Virus record (IMG/VR): IMGVR_UViG_3300045988_128739 | Location: 1-64,000 of that record | Origin: a virus | Strand: one strand, 5' to 3' | DNA length: 64,000 bases | Shown: in pieces, positions 1,278-41,534 of the stretch | Layout of the letters: every line of letters begins with the position of its first letter | Position numbering within the stretch: position 1 is the stretch's first letter | Notes under the pieces: generated by a model | Told to the model about the DNA's origin: nothing | What the model saw: the letters and a program-made list of their open reading frames with translations, nothing else | The model's database searches: none | Position numbers and translations under genes: made by a program

Positions 1278-2339
1278 ATGAACAATTCAATGGTCGCTCA
1301 CTTGTGGGCTCATGAACAAGAAGAATCAGCATCAGGGAACAATTTCTTCTTTGAAGGTACAAGTATTTATTCTTATGGGCATCACTTTGAAGTCGGGAGA
1401 ATAGTAAAAAACAAACAAGGGAAGAAAGCATACCTGATAAATGAAGATTATTATTCTGTTACCACGAGCAAACATCAATGCTATGTTCGTAATGCGATAC
1501 CAACTTGGGCAATGGTTTTCAGTGTAGGGGATAATATATCGGATACTGGTAATATGAGGTTTGTTGCCAGCAAACTGGAATCAATTAAGAAGTCTATTGA
1601 AAAATACAAAAGAGCTAAAACAGAATTATCTTATACAGATATTTGGGGCGCTTTTGGGAATATGATGGATTACATTCAGTTCTTTAACATGGGAACTGCT
1701 AAGAGTATCCTTAAAAAGAGTGCTAATGATTGGCTTGGAACCAATCATGAATTATCCAAGAGCGGAGATAGTATCAAGCGTAAGCACGTACATGAATTAA
1801 AACGCATCTTTCAAATTTTATTGGATCATCAAGGATTAAAAGTGTTAGGGACCGTAAATGTGATTGTTGATGAAGTTTGCGGGGAAGGTACATGGATTAA
1901 GTATTCAGAAAGATCTGAAAGATGGAGAAAGGGTGAGGAAGAAAGAGAAAGAATAAAATTAGAGAGATTAAGAAAGGAAGAAGAAGCCCGTTACAAGGAT
2001 TTTGATGAAAAACTGGAAGAGTGGAAGTCAGGAGAAATCAATTTCTTGAATACACCTTTCTATATTCCTGGTGAAAAACCTAACGCCTGGATTCGTATAA
2101 AAGGAAATATTATTGAGACAAGTAAACAGATAAAGATTGGAATAGCAGAAGCCAGAAAACTGTGGCGGGCTGTGTCGGCAATGCACCGGGGCGCCGAGTT
2201 TCGGCACGGTCTGGTGGAGGACGTCACCGGTCACCAGTGGAGTCTAAATCGGTACGAAAACGATTTGCTAACCGCTGGATGTCATAGGATAGCATATAAC
2301 GAAATGGAGAGAATAGCAAAACAACTGGGATGGGTGTAA
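1278..2339 (+). CDS. hypothetical protein with charged coiled-coil segment (353 aa)
   Basis: ORF with an ERSERWRKGEEERERIKLERLRKEEEARYKDFDEK stretch. Its C-terminal part is encoded by a GC-rich island (2152..2240). Confidence 0.5.
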   Translation: MNNSMVAHLWAHEQEESASGNNFFFEGTSIYSYGHHFEVGRIVKNKQGKKAYLINEDYYSVTTSKHQCYVRNAIPTWAMVFSVGDNISDTGNMRFVASKLESIKKSIEKYKRAKTELSYTDIWGAFGNMMDYIQFFNMGTAKSILKKSANDWLGTNHELSKSGDSIKRKHVHELKRIFQILLDHQGLKVLGTVNVIVDEVCGEGTWIKYSERSERWRKGEEERERIKLERLRKEEEARYKDFDEKLEEWKSGEINFLNTPFYIPGEKPNAWIRIKGNIIETSKQIKIGIAEARKLWRAVSAMHRGAEFRHGLVEDVTGHQWSLNRYENDLLTAGCHRIAYNEMERIAKQLGWV

Positions 2340-2385
2340 GTAGTCCATCTTGTTTTATTGATTACATAATTAAAAATAAAAAGAT

Positions 2386-3114
2386 ATGGAAAATCCAATT
2401 ATTGTTCCGTTTGATTTAGAAACGGCGAAAAAAATAAACATAGGGGAAATAGCAGGTCGTATTGTGACAGAGAAAGGACAAAATAGAGCAGAAATCGTAT
2501 ATGAAGACAATTCGTCAAATTGTCCGTTATTGGTTGTAATTCATTCGATTTCTGTATCGGCAGACTGGTTTTCTGCTACAGGAAAAGCACTTAGCAGCGA
2601 AAATCGCCTCCTTCTTGAAGTTCCAGAATATATTACATTTAAAGATGGAGAGGTGTTAAGTAATAAAGATGGTAGCTATATCTTTATTTTAAATACACAT
2701 GGGAAATATTTAACGTCTTTTTATGCCTCTTTAAATCAAAAAGGTATTCTTAAAATAGAAGATGGTTTATCTGCTTGGGAAAATCAGATAGAAAAATACA
2801 GATTTGCCACTAAGTCCGAAAGACAAAAGTTGGTTGACGCATTAAAGGCAAGCAAAGAACCTGAAGCTAAAGAGTATCTGAAACGCTTCTTCGGGATTGA
2901 AGAAAAACCGAAATATGAGTTTAAGCCGTTTGATAAAGTGCTGGTAAGAAAAGAAGGAAATAAAAAATGGAATATCAGTTTGTTTGCAAGGGAAATTGTG
3001 GACGATTATAATGGATTGCCTTATAAGTACGAATGTTCCAATGGAACATTATGGGATTATTGTATTCATTTTGAGGGTAACGAACATCTTTTAGGAACTA
3101 ATAAAAATGGATAA
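2386..3114 (+). CDS. hypothetical protein (242 aa)
   Basis: ORF in the same orientation and tightly packed with its neighbours. Confidence 0.5.
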   Translation: MENPIIVPFDLETAKKINIGEIAGRIVTEKGQNRAEIVYEDNSSNCPLLVVIHSISVSADWFSATGKALSSENRLLLEVPEYITFKDGEVLSNKDGSYIFILNTHGKYLTSFYASLNQKGILKIEDGLSAWENQIEKYRFATKSERQKLVDALKASKEPEAKEYLKRFFGIEEKPKYEFKPFDKVLVRKEGNKKWNISLFAREIVDDYNGLPYKYECSNGTLWDYCIHFEGNEHLLGTNKNG

Positions 3115-3119
3115 CAAAT

Positions 3120-3395
3120 ATGAAAACAATAACATACGAAGGGGTGCAGCATGGAGACTGGGTGAGATGTGTCTTATGTGGGGCGCAAATGCTTCTTCCA
3201 TGTGGGGCAGATAAATGCCCGGAATGTGGAGAAAATGGCACTTTAAGATGGGTCGACGAAGAGAGGCAGGAAATAGACGCTAAGGGTCTGGATTGCTTAG
3301 GTTATGTAAGAGAGTTGAGGGTAGATGATTATTTATCTCCAACAACATTAGAAGAGATCGCGGAAGAAATAAAGAAAAAAGTAAATAGAGGATAA
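3120..3395 (+). CDS. zinc-ribbon protein (91 aa)
   Basis: CxxC...CxxC pattern: CVLCGAQMLLPCGADKCPECG. Confidence 0.45.
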   Translation: MKTITYEGVQHGDWVRCVLCGAQMLLPCGADKCPECGENGTLRWVDEERQEIDAKGLDCLGYVRELRVDDYLSPTTLEEIAEEIKKKVNRG

Positions 3396-3520
3396 CTCTA
3401 ATGAGAAAATTATTAAAAGTAAAATTTATTCAAAAATGTGCATGCGGGGCGGTCACTATCAGATTTGATAATGACCGCTGAATTAAGTAACATAGCTAAG
3501 AATTGTAAAATATAGAAAAT

Positions 3521-3775
3521 ATGTATGAGAATATTTTAAGCAACATGTTAGGATGTCAGACATATTGTATATCAGACAGTCCCTCGAATAGATACTGTCT
3601 TATTGGACCTATTGAGTGCAATGAGAAGTTAATAGAAGTGTTTGAGAAGGGGATAACAGTAAAACTCAAATACGTGGAAAAACGGGTCCTGGATGCATTT
3701 ACGGACAACGGAATCGACCTGAGTAATTACACTCATTGTATTATTGTGAAGCGGAATTTTTATCTCGCTTGGTAA
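3521..3775 (+). CDS. hypothetical protein (84 aa)
   Basis: ORF with a Cys-containing N-terminus. Confidence 0.35.
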   Translation: MYENILSNMLGCQTYCISDSPSNRYCLIGPIECNEKLIEVFEKGITVKLKYVEKRVLDAFTDNGIDLSNYTHCIIVKRNFYLAW

Positions 3776-3793
3776 CGGCAAAACATAAACAAT

Positions 3794-4456
3794 ATGAATA
3801 ATTTTGTAATAGATACTCCAGATAATTTCTGGCAAATAAGATGGCTTGACAAGTATATGGAAGGCCACAAAGGATTCATAGCTGGTGGATGTTTTAAAAA
3901 TATCCTTTCCGGAGAAAGAGTAAAAGACATTGATATTTTCTTTGAAAGTGAAAGCGATTTTCAGGAGGCTATTGATTCGTTCAATGATGAAAAACATCAG
4001 AAAGAAGGATGGAAATTTAAGTACAGAAATGAGAAGGTATGTGCGTTCCAGAAAGAGGGAGAAAAGGTATGGATAGAGTTCATAGAGTCAGAGTTTGGAA
4101 AGCCGAAAGAGATTCTTAGGAGCTTCGATTTTACTGTGACAAAAATGGCTTACTATAAGGAGCCCAAATACGAAGAAAAAGAAGATGATTATTTTCCATT
4201 CTCATCTGCAAGTATAGTAGCATACGAGTACAAACCACTCTATCATGAGAAATTCTTCGAACATCTTCATATGAAGAGGCTGGTCATTGACGAAAATATT
4301 CCTTTTCCAGTAAGTACATGGGAGCGCTCATATCGGTATAAAGGATATGGTTACAATATGTGCCGGGAGACAAAGAAAAAACTTCTACAGGCTATTAAAG
4401 GTGTAAACGTAGAGGAGGAAGATGTATCTTTGTACACTACTGGAGGATGGGATTAA
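3794..4456 (+). CDS. class-II nucleotidyltransferase head-domain protein (CCA-adding enzyme / poly(A) polymerase family-like), 220 aa
   Basis: IAGGCFKNILSGERVKDIDIFFE matches the GGxVRDxLLGxxxxDxDh signature. LRSFDFTVTKMAY matches the RRDFTINA motif of tRNA nucleotidyltransferase/PcnB head domains. The protein is too short to include the HD/tail domains. Confidence 0.55.
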   Translation: MNNFVIDTPDNFWQIRWLDKYMEGHKGFIAGGCFKNILSGERVKDIDIFFESESDFQEAIDSFNDEKHQKEGWKFKYRNEKVCAFQKEGEKVWIEFIESEFGKPKEILRSFDFTVTKMAYYKEPKYEEKEDDYFPFSSASIVAYEYKPLYHEKFFEHLHMKRLVIDENIPFPVSTWERSYRYKGYGYNMCRETKKKLLQAIKGVNVEEEDVSLYTTGGWD

Positions 4457-27488: not shown

Positions 27489-28037
27489 ATGGATGATAAT
27501 ACTAAAAATATCCTTTATCCAAAAGGATCTATTTTTCGCATATTAAAAGATGATATAATCAGTGCCGAATTTAAAATCGTCAAAGGAGCTATAGCGGAGG
27601 CAGTATCAGACATAGAAGTAAATGATAAATATGCTGAAGTTTGTTGTAATGGGGAGACGTTCGTCATAGAAACGGATATTATGGATATTATTCTTACCAA
27701 AGACCCCATAGGAAACAAATCGGTGAAAAATGACATCATTGACGACAAACTACGATGGGATTTGCTTCCAATGGAAGAGATTGAAGACATTGTGAAAGTC
27801 TATCATGCCGGAGCCAAGAAATATGGGCCTAATAATTGGCAGAATCTTGACAATGGCATTGAACGGTACCGTGCTGCGATGTTTCGACACCTAATGGAAT
27901 ACATGAAAGGGGAAAGAGTGGATTCCGATACAGGATGTTTTCATCTTGCACAATGTGCATGGAACTGTATAGCTATGCTGTGGTATGACAAGCACGGGAA
28001 AGGATTAATACCAATAAATAAGGAGGAAAAGAAATGA
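27489..28037 (+). CDS. dATP/dGTP pyrophosphohydrolase N-terminal-domain-like protein (182 aa)
   Basis: LRWDLLPMEEIEDIVKVYHAGAKKYGPNNWQN...RYRAAMFRHL resembles the conserved core of the phage dGTP/dATP diphosphohydrolase N-domain family. The assignment is from memory. Confidence 0.4.
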   Translation: MDDNTKNILYPKGSIFRILKDDIISAEFKIVKGAIAEAVSDIEVNDKYAEVCCNGETFVIETDIMDIILTKDPIGNKSVKNDIIDDKLRWDLLPMEEIEDIVKVYHAGAKKYGPNNWQNLDNGIERYRAAMFRHLMEYMKGERVDSDTGCFHLAQCAWNCIAMLWYDKHGKGLIPINKEEKK

Positions 28038-28345
28038 CAATAGAACAACTAAATTATTTATTAAGAAAAGAGCTTTATGCTATAAAAAACCATAAAGACA
28101 ATATTGATAGAATCAAAAAAGAATACTTTGATTCCAATTATGGGTTAAAAGAAGGAGATAAGATCCGTATTTTACACGAAGCAGGAGATGAAATGATAGG
28201 CTTCTTGAAAAAAGTTGAAGTATGTGAAGACGGAGATCTGTACTTGACAATCCAAAAACAAAACGAAAAAGGCGACAGAGGCAGAGGAACATGGAATATG
28301 TATCTATCATCAAAATCAATTAAAATAGAAAAATTATTAGATTAA
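28034..28345 (+). CDS. hypothetical protein (103 aa)
   Basis: ORF. Confidence 0.4.
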   Translation: MTIEQLNYLLRKELYAIKNHKDNIDRIKKEYFDSNYGLKEGDKIRILHEAGDEMIGFLKKVEVCEDGDLYLTIQKQNEKGDRGRGTWNMYLSSKSIKIEKLLD

Positions 28346-28352
28346 TAACGAT

Positions 28353-28874
28353 ATGATTAGAGCAAGATTTTACATTAAAAAATCCGACTGCGGTAACGAC
28401 TACCGTCCAGTCAAATGGCCTATAAAATATCCATATTGGTGTAGTGCAGAATCCAGTAATTCATTTGTATTGGTGGCGTATGCTGAAGATGAAGACAGCA
28501 TAAAAGAACTGTGGCCGGAGGCGTATGATATTAATGTCTTAGAGAAAGATACCGAAATTAGATTCACATTAAGATTCCCTAAGCCGGAATGGTATGAATT
28601 ATATGAAGAAATGTATGACACATTTGTGTGGATTACAGACACATGTCTACAAGATGGTAAGATAAGAAAAGTAAAAGCTAAAATAGAAGATTATGATGGT
28701 ACTTTATTAGCCGACACCCCTAACCGGTTCACTCCTTATACGATAGGGCATCAAGCTTTTAAAAGTAAAGAAGAAGCTTTGAAATATGCAGAGGAACAGA
28801 GAACGGATTTAATTAAGTCTCTTAAGTTGCAAATACACGAACTTGAAAATCTAAAATTTAAATGCGATGATTGA
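28353..28874 (+). CDS. hypothetical protein (173 aa)
   Basis: ORF. It has no HuH/Y1 transposase motifs. Confidence 0.45.
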   Translation: MIRARFYIKKSDCGNDYRPVKWPIKYPYWCSAESSNSFVLVAYAEDEDSIKELWPEAYDINVLEKDTEIRFTLRFPKPEWYELYEEMYDTFVWITDTCLQDGKIRKVKAKIEDYDGTLLADTPNRFTPYTIGHQAFKSKEEALKYAEEQRTDLIKSLKLQIHELENLKFKCDD

Positions 28875-28927
28875 ATAATTTGATTATTTTACAAATAACG
28901 ATTACATTTACGATATAAATCATTCAA

Positions 28928-30012
28928 ATGAGATTAGTTGAAAGGCATATAGTTAAAGACAACCGGTTTGAGGATATTTGCTTCAAATCCGGCTTGTTAT
29001 ATAATTATGTTCTTTACAACATTCGTCAAGGAATCTTTTCAGGTAACTATTTAAAGGAATTTGATTTATCAAACAAACTTTGCAAAGAAAACCAATTCGA
29101 TTTCAGGAATTTACCTAATCATGTATCCCAACAGGTGATTAAACAGGTATTTAAAAACATAAAATCCTGGATAAAACTCAAGAAGGATTTTGAAAAGAAT
29201 CCTTCTAAATACGGAAATCATAGACCTCACCTTCCATCATACAAACAAGGTAAGAAACAAAACATGGTTGTTTTCACCAACTGCAATTGTAGGGTAAAGG
29301 GTGATAATTGTATTTATTTTGTTAAAGATATAATCAAACCTATCAAAACAAATGTAAAGAAAGACGAACTAAAACAAGTTAGAATAATCCCTCAAGCTAC
29401 ATGTTATGTAGTAGAGGTAGTTTATGAAAGAAAGGAAACTGATCTTGGTTTAAACAAAGACAATTTTCTTTCGATTGATTTAGGATTGAATAATTTATGT
29501 TCATGTATTAGTAATGTAGAAACTAATTCTTTCATTATAAACGGACGGGTTATGAAATCAGTAAATCAGTGGTACAATAAGAAGAAAGCTAAGTTGTAGA
29601 CTTTTGTAAATCTAACAATATAGGAACAATCATCATTGGATTAAACAAAGAATGGAAAAACGAGATAAATATCGGTAAAAGGAATAACCAACATTTTGTT
29701 TCTATTCCTCATTCTAAATTGATTGATAAGATTGTTTACAAAGCAAATCTTTTAGGGATAGAGGTAATTACTCATGAGGAATCTTACACATCAAAGATTG
29801 ACCATCTTGCTTTTGAACCTCTAAAGAAACAAGAATCCTATTTAGGGAAAAGAAAGAAACGTGGATTATTCCAAAGTTCCGTTGGAAAGCTAATTAATGC
29901 TGATATTAATGGAGCTATAGGAATAGCAAGAAAAGTAGTCGGTGATTCTTTCATTGGAAAGATAATCGATAGTGGATTTGTGTTTAATCCGGTTAGAATA
30001 AATATTTTGTGA
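28928..30012 (+). pseudogene. tnpB: IS605/IS1341-family TnpB (OrfB)-like gene, frameshifted and catalytically degenerate
   Basis: The N-terminal 223 aa match the TnpB N-terminal/WED region and the RuvC-I motif LSIDLGLNN. The C-terminal part continues in another frame from about 29593, with ...YKANLLGIEVITHEESYTSK and the RuvC-III motif NADINGAIGI. The RuvC-II glutamate position reads IIIGLN instead of IxxEDLN. The Cys4 zinc finger is replaced by LGKRKKRGLFQSS. About 35 aa of the linker are missing and a third frame encodes RRKLSCR. Confidence 0.6.
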
Positions 30013-30019
30013 TATAAGG

Positions 30020-30766
30020 TTGAATCTAATGAATAAAATGAATAATTTTAATAACATTAACTACGCAGCAAAAGCCAGAAGAGCTTATTTGATAAACAAT
30101 TTCGATAAGATTCTTAACAGCCTCAACACGCTTCATTCGACGGTTGAAACCATGACGTTGTTCGTAAACGACCAGGCTTATAATTACATTCTTAAGCTGA
30201 AGGAAGTGATTAAGGGTGGTCCTATGTACAAACATAATGTCAAACGATTTTTGAATGATATGGACAAAGAGATAAAGAGGTACAATGCTTCTATCTACTA
30301 CATAAATAAAGAGCGTAGTGAGGTTATAGCTGATATAACACAAGCGATGGAAGATTGCCTCATGCCATACATAGACGACCTGGCCGGCGCTATAAGGGCA
30401 GCCGTGTGGTCGAGGGGTGTGTCCGAGGAGCGGACGGAAGCGGCGGTACTGTCCCTAATCGTATCCTCCTTGGCTACGACATCAGGCAGACTTATCTCAG
30501 ATGGATATCAGATCATGAAAGAAATGGGTGGAGGCTGGGGTGGTAATCCATTTACGTTTATGAGCATTGATAAGATAAGACACTTATCTACATCATTGTC
30601 TGATGCTATTACCGGTGGAGAAATAGCTCTTGAAGAAAAAGAAGCCAATAACATAACTAAGGCAATGGATGTTTTTATTGAGAAAATGTCTGATTCGGAT
30701 ATTGTCGATAAGGTAATTAGCATACTCGAAGAATCAGAATCTAAAAATAAGGAGGAGCGATCATGA
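30020..30766 (+). CDS. hypothetical protein (248 aa)
   Basis: ORF containing a GC-rich island (30375..30475). Confidence 0.45.
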   Translation: MNLMNKMNNFNNINYAAKARRAYLINNFDKILNSLNTLHSTVETMTLFVNDQAYNYILKLKEVIKGGPMYKHNVKRFLNDMDKEIKRYNASIYYINKERSEVIADITQAMEDCLMPYIDDLAGAIRAAVWSRGVSEERTEAAVLSLIVSSLATTSGRLISDGYQIMKEMGGGWGGNPFTFMSIDKIRHLSTSLSDAITGGEIALEEKEANNITKAMDVFIEKMSDSDIVDKVISILEESESKNKEERS

Positions 30767-41448: not shown

Positions 41449-41534
41449 TGATCTACACTAATCTAAACTAATACCATGAAAAAACTTAAATCTAAAAACT
41501 AAAGAACACACAAATATATGAAAATGTATGGTTT

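Follow-up and report, generated by a model that had tools for sequence, protein, structure and literature searches.

A recently broken tnpB-only insertion element between two genes of an epsilon crAss-like phage

Does a frameshifted tnpB gene in a phage genome encode a nuclease-dead protein that the phage has put to a new use, or is it the remnant of an ordinary insertion sequence (IS)? This question is raised by a locus in a 64,000-nucleotide stretch of viral DNA, positions 1 to 64,000 of the IMG/VR record IMGVR_UViG_3300045988_128739, which we refer to as the window. One TnpB is encoded here in two halves, by an open reading frame (ORF) spanning nucleotides 28928 to 29599 and by a continuation in frame 3 that extends to nucleotide 30012. 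An initial annotation, made from the sequence alone, raised the first possibility and offered a decaying IS as the alternative. Our analysis indicates, with high probability, that the locus is an ordinary decaying tnpB-only IS from a clade with a rearranged RuvC-II motif, whose intact members we infer to be RNA-guided nucleases and whose copy in the window was broken recently.

A tnpB gene split by one deletion inside a mobile element

Profile searches bear out the initial description of a single gene in two pieces. The Pfam domain OrfB_IS605 (PF01385, E = 8e-8) is matched in the first half and Cas12f1-like_TNB (PF07282, E = 2e-8) in the second, and both domains are present in intact homologs. 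The NCBIfam model guided_TnpB (NF040570) is covered at positions 19 to 241 and 284 to 389 of 389, leaving a gap of approximately 40 model positions between them. With the gene in two pieces, each half falls below the full-length cut-off of this model. The family profile matches ISDra2 TnpB (E = 4e-13) and Cas12f structures. The motifs quoted in the initial annotation can be read directly, with SIDLGLNN at RuvC-I, TIIIGLNKEW at the canonical RuvC-II position, and NADINGA at RuvC-III, and the window TnpB indeed lacks any CxxC, wherein DHLA replaces the first of these pairs (Table 1).

The cause of the split is evident from an intact element at the same site (locus L084, IMGVR_UViG_3300029362_000001), which is identical to the window copy at 1186/1186 aligned bases. 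The sole lesion of the window copy relative to this allele is a 106-nt deletion, rather than the several indels that had been proposed. The deletion takes out codons 224 to 258 plus one base, which corresponds to the roughly 35 amino acids (aa) already noted as missing, and shifts the frame. These 35 residues are conserved, and the nearly invariant Arg243 and His252 are among them. The genuine linker, MSF(V/I)G..GTSNRI..ITLFRNCWIEDKLHKISRYI, is absent, and the “RRKLSR-like linker” that had been read from another frame is a coincidence. The exact 223-aa product occurs on five contigs, all with the same genomic context, and its sequence is listed under JGI/IMG, Logan, and ENA; the exact 97-aa C-terminal ORF occurs on 25 contigs. 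The deletion allele is real, and the homopolymer or sequencing error that had been considered does not account for it.

Same-site copies fetched by their left junction comprise 21 complete elements, of which 14 are intact and 7 are broken. Judged by the lengths of the element and of its first ORF, the broken copies comprise at least five distinct forms (−1, +1, −44, and +7 nt). One same-site copy (L005) has a 120-nt in-frame deletion, and another (L036) has a TGG-to-TGA nonsense change. The varied lesions at this site follow the pattern expected of neutral decay of a resident copy and not that of a conserved shortened protein. The window copy was inactivated recently by its single deletion, and its ends and candidate omegaRNA region remain identical to those of the intact copy. 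The earlier alternative of “simply a decaying IS” is therefore apt for the window copy, although its decay consists of one recent 106-nt deletion and not of many lesions.

The limits of the element were established by comparison with an empty site and with copies in other contexts. The nearest annotated phage is csAssE-Sib (OR575929), an epsilon crAss-like phage (PMC11054128), in which the two flanking genes abut directly as ...GATGAT/TAATTACGCGGCAAAAGCC, where the slash marks the junction. Relative to this site, the window carries 1,186 extra bases; the element measures 1,292 bp in its intact form. It begins with TGAATAATTTG and ends with TTTTAATAACAT, and its boundary is uncertain by 2 to 3 nt because AT(T) is common to both junctions. 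The empty site is also carried by 96 related IMG/VR phage contigs, which together with csAssE-Sib have the sequence GATGAT/TAA(Y)TACGC(R)GCAAAAGCC. At other sites of the same subfamily, the 5′ flanks end in TAGAT, AAGAT, or ATGGT. Whatever the context, the right end has a sharp limit; it reads ...TTTTAATAAC and then AT in one subfamily, GTG in another. Small subterminal hairpins are present at both ends. Empty sites were recovered for sites 0, 1, 2, 4, 5, 6, and 22; the empty allele of site 1 was found with a simple ATG-plus-flank pattern, and a gapped pattern gave no match. The TTGAT pentamer that had been placed just upstream, at 28887, as a transposon-adjacent motif (TAM) occupies nucleotides 28880 to 28884 and thus lies inside the element, and the real flank is GATGAT. 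With defined ends, many contexts, and a clean empty-site presence/absence polymorphism, the insertion is a tnpB-only element of the IS200/IS605 type that resides between two phage genes in an epsilon crAss-like phage genome.

Table 1. Positions in the window of the element, its split gene, and associated features
Feature	Position	Strand	Remarks
5′ flank GATGAT	28866..28871	+	Adjoins left end; presumptive TAM-like (...TGAT)
Whole insertion	28872..30057	+	Empty-site comparison, copies elsewhere
Left end, 56 nt	28872..28927	+	Small A/T hairpins 28874-28888 and 28884-28898
N-terminal TnpB fragment, 223 aa, frame 1	28928..29599	+	Through RuvC-I; stop created by frameshift
RuvC-I Asp184 codon	29477-29479		SIDLGLNN
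106-nt deletion junction	29593..29594	+	Alignment to intact same-site copies; TTG microhomology at both edges
C-terminal TnpB part, frame 3	29602..30012	+	Canonical RuvC-II Gly, alternative Glu-Glu, RuvC-III Asp
Canonical RuvC-II Gly codon	29638-29640		TIIIGLNKEW
Alternative Glu-Glu codons	29776-29781		HEESYTSK
DHLA in place of first CxxC	from 29800
RuvC-III Asp codon	29902-29904		NADINGA
Candidate omegaRNA scaffold	29939..30057	+	Overlaps tnpB 3′ end, runs to right end
RNAalifold helices	29939-29969, 29973-29991, 29992-30030		First helix encloses 29947-29962
Non-coding right end	30013..30057	+	Ends ...TTTTAATAACAT; subterminal hairpin 30034-30050
Presumptive guide-encoding flank TAACTACGCAGCAAAAGCCA	30058..30077	+	TnpB position rule; 5′ coding sequence of downstream gene 30029-30766

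The family to which this element belongs is large. A search with the reconstructed full-length protein returned more than 7,800 relatives, and the best 120 of these are 78 to 92% identical, nearly all 394 to 396 aa long, and in many cases located on contigs of approximately 150 kb. Eighty IMG/VR phage loci represent 23 to 25 distinct flanking contexts, and two or three copies occur together on several of the phage contigs. The median ratio of nonsynonymous to synonymous divergence (dN/dS) is 0.10 at a dS of approximately 1.4 (1,301 pairs from 59 distinct intact coding sequences), demonstrating that intact family members are under purifying selection. Among epsilon crAss-like gut phages, this element family is polymorphic and seems to have kept its mobility.

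No tnpA gene adjoins any copy or would have room in one, although the window was not scanned whole with a TnpA profile. As the initial annotation held, the ORF upstream of the window copy (28353 to 28874) is not a tnpA; it is a phage gene that is also found beside the empty site. A search of nucleotides 28700 to 30300 against Rfam (E ≤ 10) matched no family, including any group I intron as would be expected for an IStron, and the left end is merely 56 nt long.

A rearranged RuvC-II site in the TnpB family

The proposal that the window TnpB is nuclease-dead was based on the Gly at the RuvC-II position and the loss of the zinc finger. Both prove to be family-wide features. We evaluated conservation in 130 diverse representatives of 50%-identity clusters, which are 36 to 51% identical to the query. 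Asp184, Gly273, and Asp361 are each present in 130/130 representatives, and Glu320, located 47 residues downstream of Gly273, is present in 129/130, whereas a CxxC between Glu320 and Asp361 is present in 0/130. Close homologs exhibit the same four residues and likewise lack CxxC.

This pattern matches an architecture that has been described for other TnpB proteins. In the largest rearranged TnpB group, Gly stands where RuvC-II normally has Glu, and the change is compensated by an alternative Glu located on the next strand; zinc fingers have been lost in some large branches, and NADxN marks a derived clade (Altae-Tran et al., PMC10691335). The alternative Glu has been placed “approximately 45 residues away” from the canonical position, and in the same study the Fanzor ApmFNuc was an active nuclease whose E467A mutant was inactive, and a rearranged protein, TvTnpB, cleaved DNA in a TAM-dependent manner (PMC10530073). 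The same alternative Glu was named Ealt elsewhere (PMC10711439), and the authors who described TldR proteins also state that one catalytic residue can occupy this alternate position (10.1101/2023.11.30.569447). In the rearranged subclass as defined by PMC10530073, PMC10691335, and PMC10711439, either Gly or Pro takes the canonical position. With Gly at the canonical site, an alternative Glu downstream, and both RuvC Asp residues kept, the clade of the window TnpB shares the published rearranged RuvC-II architecture, wherein the catalytic Glu would have moved by approximately 47 residues to the next beta-strand (E-S-Y-T-S-K).

Likeness to the proteins called TnpB2 (PMC10530073), RIIr (PMC10691335), or Ealt (PMC10711439) extends to the replacement of the canonical Glu by Gly, the alternative Glu approximately 45 residues downstream and just before the zinc-finger position, the NADxN sequence at RuvC-III, the association with a mobile element, and an RNA at the 3′ end. 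The window clade differs in that it has no C4 zinc finger between RuvC-II and RuvC-III, whereas the Ealt definition and RIIr-5 keep one, and in that its elements are tnpB-only, are carried by crAss-like phages, and are known from sequence alone. Because 0/130 representatives carry CxxC and zinc-finger loss is known in large branches, membership in Ealt/pro-Fanzor and RIIr-5 is excluded and membership in the rearranged subclass is not.

Gly273 and the missing zinc finger say nothing about inactivity, because they are the normal, conserved state of a known rearranged class. Among TnpB relatives generally, this combination should not be taken as the sign of a “nuclease-dead” protein, since it is the normal state of a very large clade, and screens for exapted TnpB proteins should first check for an alternative Glu.

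Candidate omegaRNA and presumptive guide

A check for a structured RNA at the 3′ end of the gene, which the initial annotation had suggested, gave a positive result. Within the last part of the element, an alignment of 36 distinct copies supports the covarying helices listed in Table 1, in which eight base pairs are changed on both sides. Paired cells amount to 97.9%, vs 35 to 62% with the partners slid, and the covariation score was reached by 0/500 shuffles. Conservation of the last ~120 nt of the element is far above that of synonymous sites elsewhere; the proportion of synonymous differences (pS) is 0.30 to 0.41 in codons 361 to 396, vs 0.6 to 0.8 over most of the gene. The region is identical across 14 loci, intact copies included. 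Single-sequence folds are unremarkable (z = −0.95 for the 3′ RNA and z = −1.96 for an internal hairpin), so support for the RNA fold comes from the alignments only. This candidate RNA overlaps the tnpB 3′ end and terminates at the right end of the element, which is the arrangement of an OMEGA system.

According to the rule for TnpB omegaRNAs, the guide corresponds to the sequence located just outside the right end (10.1101/2023.03.14.532601). By analogy, the guide would be read from nucleotide 30058 onward, giving the presumptive guide sequence TAACTACGCAGCAAAAGC. Of the 96 empty sites in related phages, 25 carry an exact match to this right flank of the element next to GATGAT.

These features suggest how intact members might operate. 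By analogy with characterized TnpB proteins, they would be RNA-guided DNA endonucleases, each using an omegaRNA encoded across the last ~70 nt of tnpB and the 45-nt right end. The intact complex would cleave the insertion site in genomes where it is unoccupied (GATGAT followed by TAACTACGCAG...), and such cutting could favor retention or copying of the element and possibly its spread between co-infecting phages. At this locus, matched filled and empty alleles, the intact progenitor of a broken copy, and a conserved 3′ RNA are available together. The locus thus offers material for testing TnpB-omegaRNA homing between phages and for finding compact nucleases that lack a zinc finger.

The element can be compared with two better known arrangements. 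As with ISDra2 and other IS605-type TnpB-omegaRNA systems that undergo peel-and-paste transposition and TnpB-driven homing (10.1101/2023.03.14.532601), it has asymmetric ends with subterminal hairpins, lies 3′ of a short motif without target duplication beyond the boundary ambiguity, and has a candidate omegaRNA that overlaps the tnpB 3′ end; its ...TGAT flank also resembles the TTGAT TAM. Unlike those systems, the window element lacks tnpA, the canonical Glu, and the zinc finger, and similarity to ISDra2 TnpB is detected by profile only. Stand-alone IS1341-type tnpB elements with a sense-overlapping 3′ noncoding RNA (PMC4615843) are likewise tnpB-only, with a structured RNA over the 3′ end of the gene; the hosts differ, since that study centers on a haloarchaeon and adds examples from archaea and bacteria, and this comparison is by description only.

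A second conserved stretch lies within the gene. Nucleotides 29472 to 29572 on the plus strand (approximately codons 182 to 215) form the most conserved nucleotide stretch of tnpB, with a mean pairwise identity of 0.89 to 0.96 and a pS of 0.24 to 0.32 vs 0.6 to 0.8. This stretch folds as an imperfect hairpin of ~100 nt with many G-U pairs, and because of these the hairpin is specific to the sense-strand RNA. Covariation from UA to CG affects two of its pairs, in 6 of 24 copies for one and in 8 of 24 for the other. The three lesions mapped at this site, namely the deletion of the window copy, that of L005, and the nonsense codon of L036, fall in or just after this stretch. Within it, GGATTGAATAATTT is similar to GATGATTGAATAATTT, the sequence across the join between flank and left end. 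The stretch might be an RNA element, an internal promoter, or a gene-conversion tract.

Weighing the readings, and the neighboring genes

Several points weigh against the reading of the locus as a decaying IS whose intact relatives are RNA-guided nucleases. No TnpA lies beside any copy to account for transposition, and only two TnpB-family “transposases” and neither an integrase nor a TnpA are reported for crAssE-Sib (PMC11054128). The clade is not assignable to a named branch of PMC10691335, where RIIr-5 is described with the zinc finger that this clade lacks. An AlphaFold2 model built from a shallow alignment of 35 close homologs has a mean predicted local distance difference test (pLDDT) score of 46.9 and a predicted template modeling (pTM) score of 0.29, and is unusable for judging the proximity of Glu320 to Asp184 and Asp361. 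When the PDB was searched by sequence and by profile, the matches extended to ISDra2 TnpB and Cas12f and to no Fanzor, so that Glu320 has no residue-level alignment to a structurally proven alternative Glu. Activity of intact members is argued from the conserved residues and by analogy with two proteins, both of other rearranged clades, that have been tested. Finally, the covariation signal lies partly in coding sequence and comes from related copies, which inflates the shuffle-based controls.

Among the rival explanations, the one that survives best is that the remnant is still partly functional, with its omegaRNA serving in trans an intact TnpB from another locus of that phage genome, its ends retained as stop and start codons of the neighboring genes, or both. 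The 100% identity of its omegaRNA and right-end region to intact copies is compatible with such a role but is also expected from a recent deletion alone. Intact paralogs do exist on contigs that are broken at this site (for example, IMGVR_UViG_3300045988_113622, _099418, and _118731), and the downstream gene has no start codon outside the right end. Searches of the 64-kb window with the family profile and with a covariance model of the 3′ RNA, however, revealed neither a second TnpB of this family nor a second omegaRNA-like element, and the paralogs in other genomes are merely ~72% identical, such that cross-use is hypothetical. We consider a residual function of this kind unlikely.

A TldR-like exaptation, wherein the phage has kept a nuclease-dead TnpB as an RNA-guided transcriptional regulator, was the proposal that drew attention to this locus. 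Indeed, TldR proteins also descend from TnpB, occur in phages (10.1101/2023.11.30.569447), and have a canonical DED triad that is seemingly incomplete, as might be read from the Gly at the RuvC-II position and the missing zinc finger here; the omegaRNA region, moreover, is intact in the broken copy. In TldR clades, however, catalytic residues have been lost and the C-terminus is often missing as well; transposon ends are absent, and the genes are associated with fliC or oppF and have guides directed at promoters. The window family keeps the Asp, alternative Glu, and Asp of the rearranged triad almost invariantly, retains defined ends, is mobile across at least 23 contexts, and lies beside neighbors that differ from site to site, with no gene as a constant partner. 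The window copy itself is frameshifted and has lost conserved core residues, same-site alleles bear many different lesions as in neutral decay rather than a conserved shortened form, and the occupied allele offers no contiguous TAM and target in cis for the presumptive guide. This proposal therefore has very little probability left. Equally improbable is an assembly or sequencing artefact that conceals an intact gene in the real phage, for which the otherwise identical intact allele and the collapse of repeats in metagenome assemblies might speak, given that the truncated product recurs on five contigs in one context and under JGI/IMG, Logan, and ENA, that a 106-nt loss with clean TTG microhomology is unlike a homopolymer error, and that there is no collapsible flanking repeat.

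In the empty allele, the TAA stop of the upstream gene overlaps the ATG start of the downstream gene (GATGATTAA), and the flank GATGAT holds this original ATG. In the window, the upstream gene ends GAT GAT TGA, vs GAT GAT TAA in the empty allele; the first three bases of the left end, TGA, constitute the new stop, and the same C-terminus is kept. The right end reads ATG AAT AAA ATG AAT AAT TTT AAT AAC AT/T, with in-frame ATG codons at 30029 and 30038, and its final AT together with the T of the flank re-creates codon 2 (ATT) of the downstream gene. The frame of this gene opens at 30002, and its first starts lie inside the right end, with no other start codon available. The right end of the element thus appears to supply the start codon of the downstream gene (30029 to 30766). 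The remnant can persist without harm to the phage, because the left end gives the upstream stop and the right end the downstream start.

A similar arrangement is evident at other sites. A long, co-oriented ORF opens inside the right end in ~15 of 25 contexts. For the subfamily whose right end is ...AACGTG, the terminal GTG shares the reading frame of the flanking ORF at 11 of 12 sites, and where empty alleles of such sites were recovered, a native ATG lies exactly at the position of the GTG in 4/4. (The loci evaluated for right-end start codons were L037/L038, L051, L070, and L074, with empty alleles L160, L048, and L229-L358.) These observations are consistent with a broader idea, which we offer tentatively and judge somewhat less probable than even, that such tnpB-only elements are adapted to gene-dense phage genomes. 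They would land on a co-oriented start codon, use the right-end cleavage motif as a replacement start (either GTG, or AT that rebuilds codon 2 downstream of in-frame ATGs) and the left end as a stop, and so knock out neither neighbor. Intact copies would then home against co-infecting phages with empty sites, and the copy in the window would represent an exhausted relic of this drive.

At three sites, 1 (L038), 6 (L051), and 22 (L074), the left end has apparently been lost with 3 to 25 nt of flank, including the orphaned native ATG. The 396-aa tnpB is intact at all three, and at L051 its ATG directly follows the upstream region of the host gene. Judged from their sequences, these copies would no longer be excisable, and as candidates for domestication they would be preferable to the window copy.

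A scan of genome contigs yielded no Bacteroidales copy and no adjacent tnpA. It did yield two near-identical copies that are 79 to 81% identical to the phage family, one (L087) on a 20-kb contig assigned to “Vibrio olivae” CECT 8064 (NZ_JBHMEP010000019.1) and one (L088) in a metagenome-assembled genome (MAG) labeled “uncultured Mollicutes.” The protein named after Vibrio olivae at NCBI is also found on 86 contigs of up to 155 kb, and both records are probably crAss-like phage contigs binned into, or contaminating, bacterial assemblies. More distant, ~42%-identical chromosomal relatives (L089-L103) occur in multiple copies in Succinimonas amylolytica DSM 2873, Succinivibrionaceae, and Ruminobacter MAGs, and share the Gly/EESYTSK architecture without a zinc finger. 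In the single copy inspected among these, L093, the gene is likewise divided between two ORFs, and no tnpA adjoins it.

Other observations concern variation around the element. Another gut phage scaffold bears a related copy (L002; MT835500, nucleotides 2617 to 3803) that keeps the 106 nt and is interrupted in the N-terminal third of the gene (ORFs 2617 to 2946 and 3102 to 3803). Its identity to the window copy is 73% on the 5′ side of the deletion point and 90% on the 3′ side, a mosaic that suggests recombination between element subfamilies. In csAssE-Sib, a DNA (cytosine-5)-methyltransferase gene (L001, nucleotides 1877 to 3004) lies between the homologs of window ORFs 28034 to 28345 and 28353 to 28874; the corresponding position in the window comprises merely 7 nt (28345 to 28353), making this a second presence/absence polymorphism that adjoins the element. 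The window also holds an unoccupied target site for a sister copy on its minus strand at ~41484 to 41500 (junction 41490/41489), with the sequence ...TTTTTAGAT/TTAAGTTTTTTCATGG. This site is filled in L003, L004, L007, and L064, whose TnpB proteins are 92 to 94% identical to the reconstructed protein of the window.

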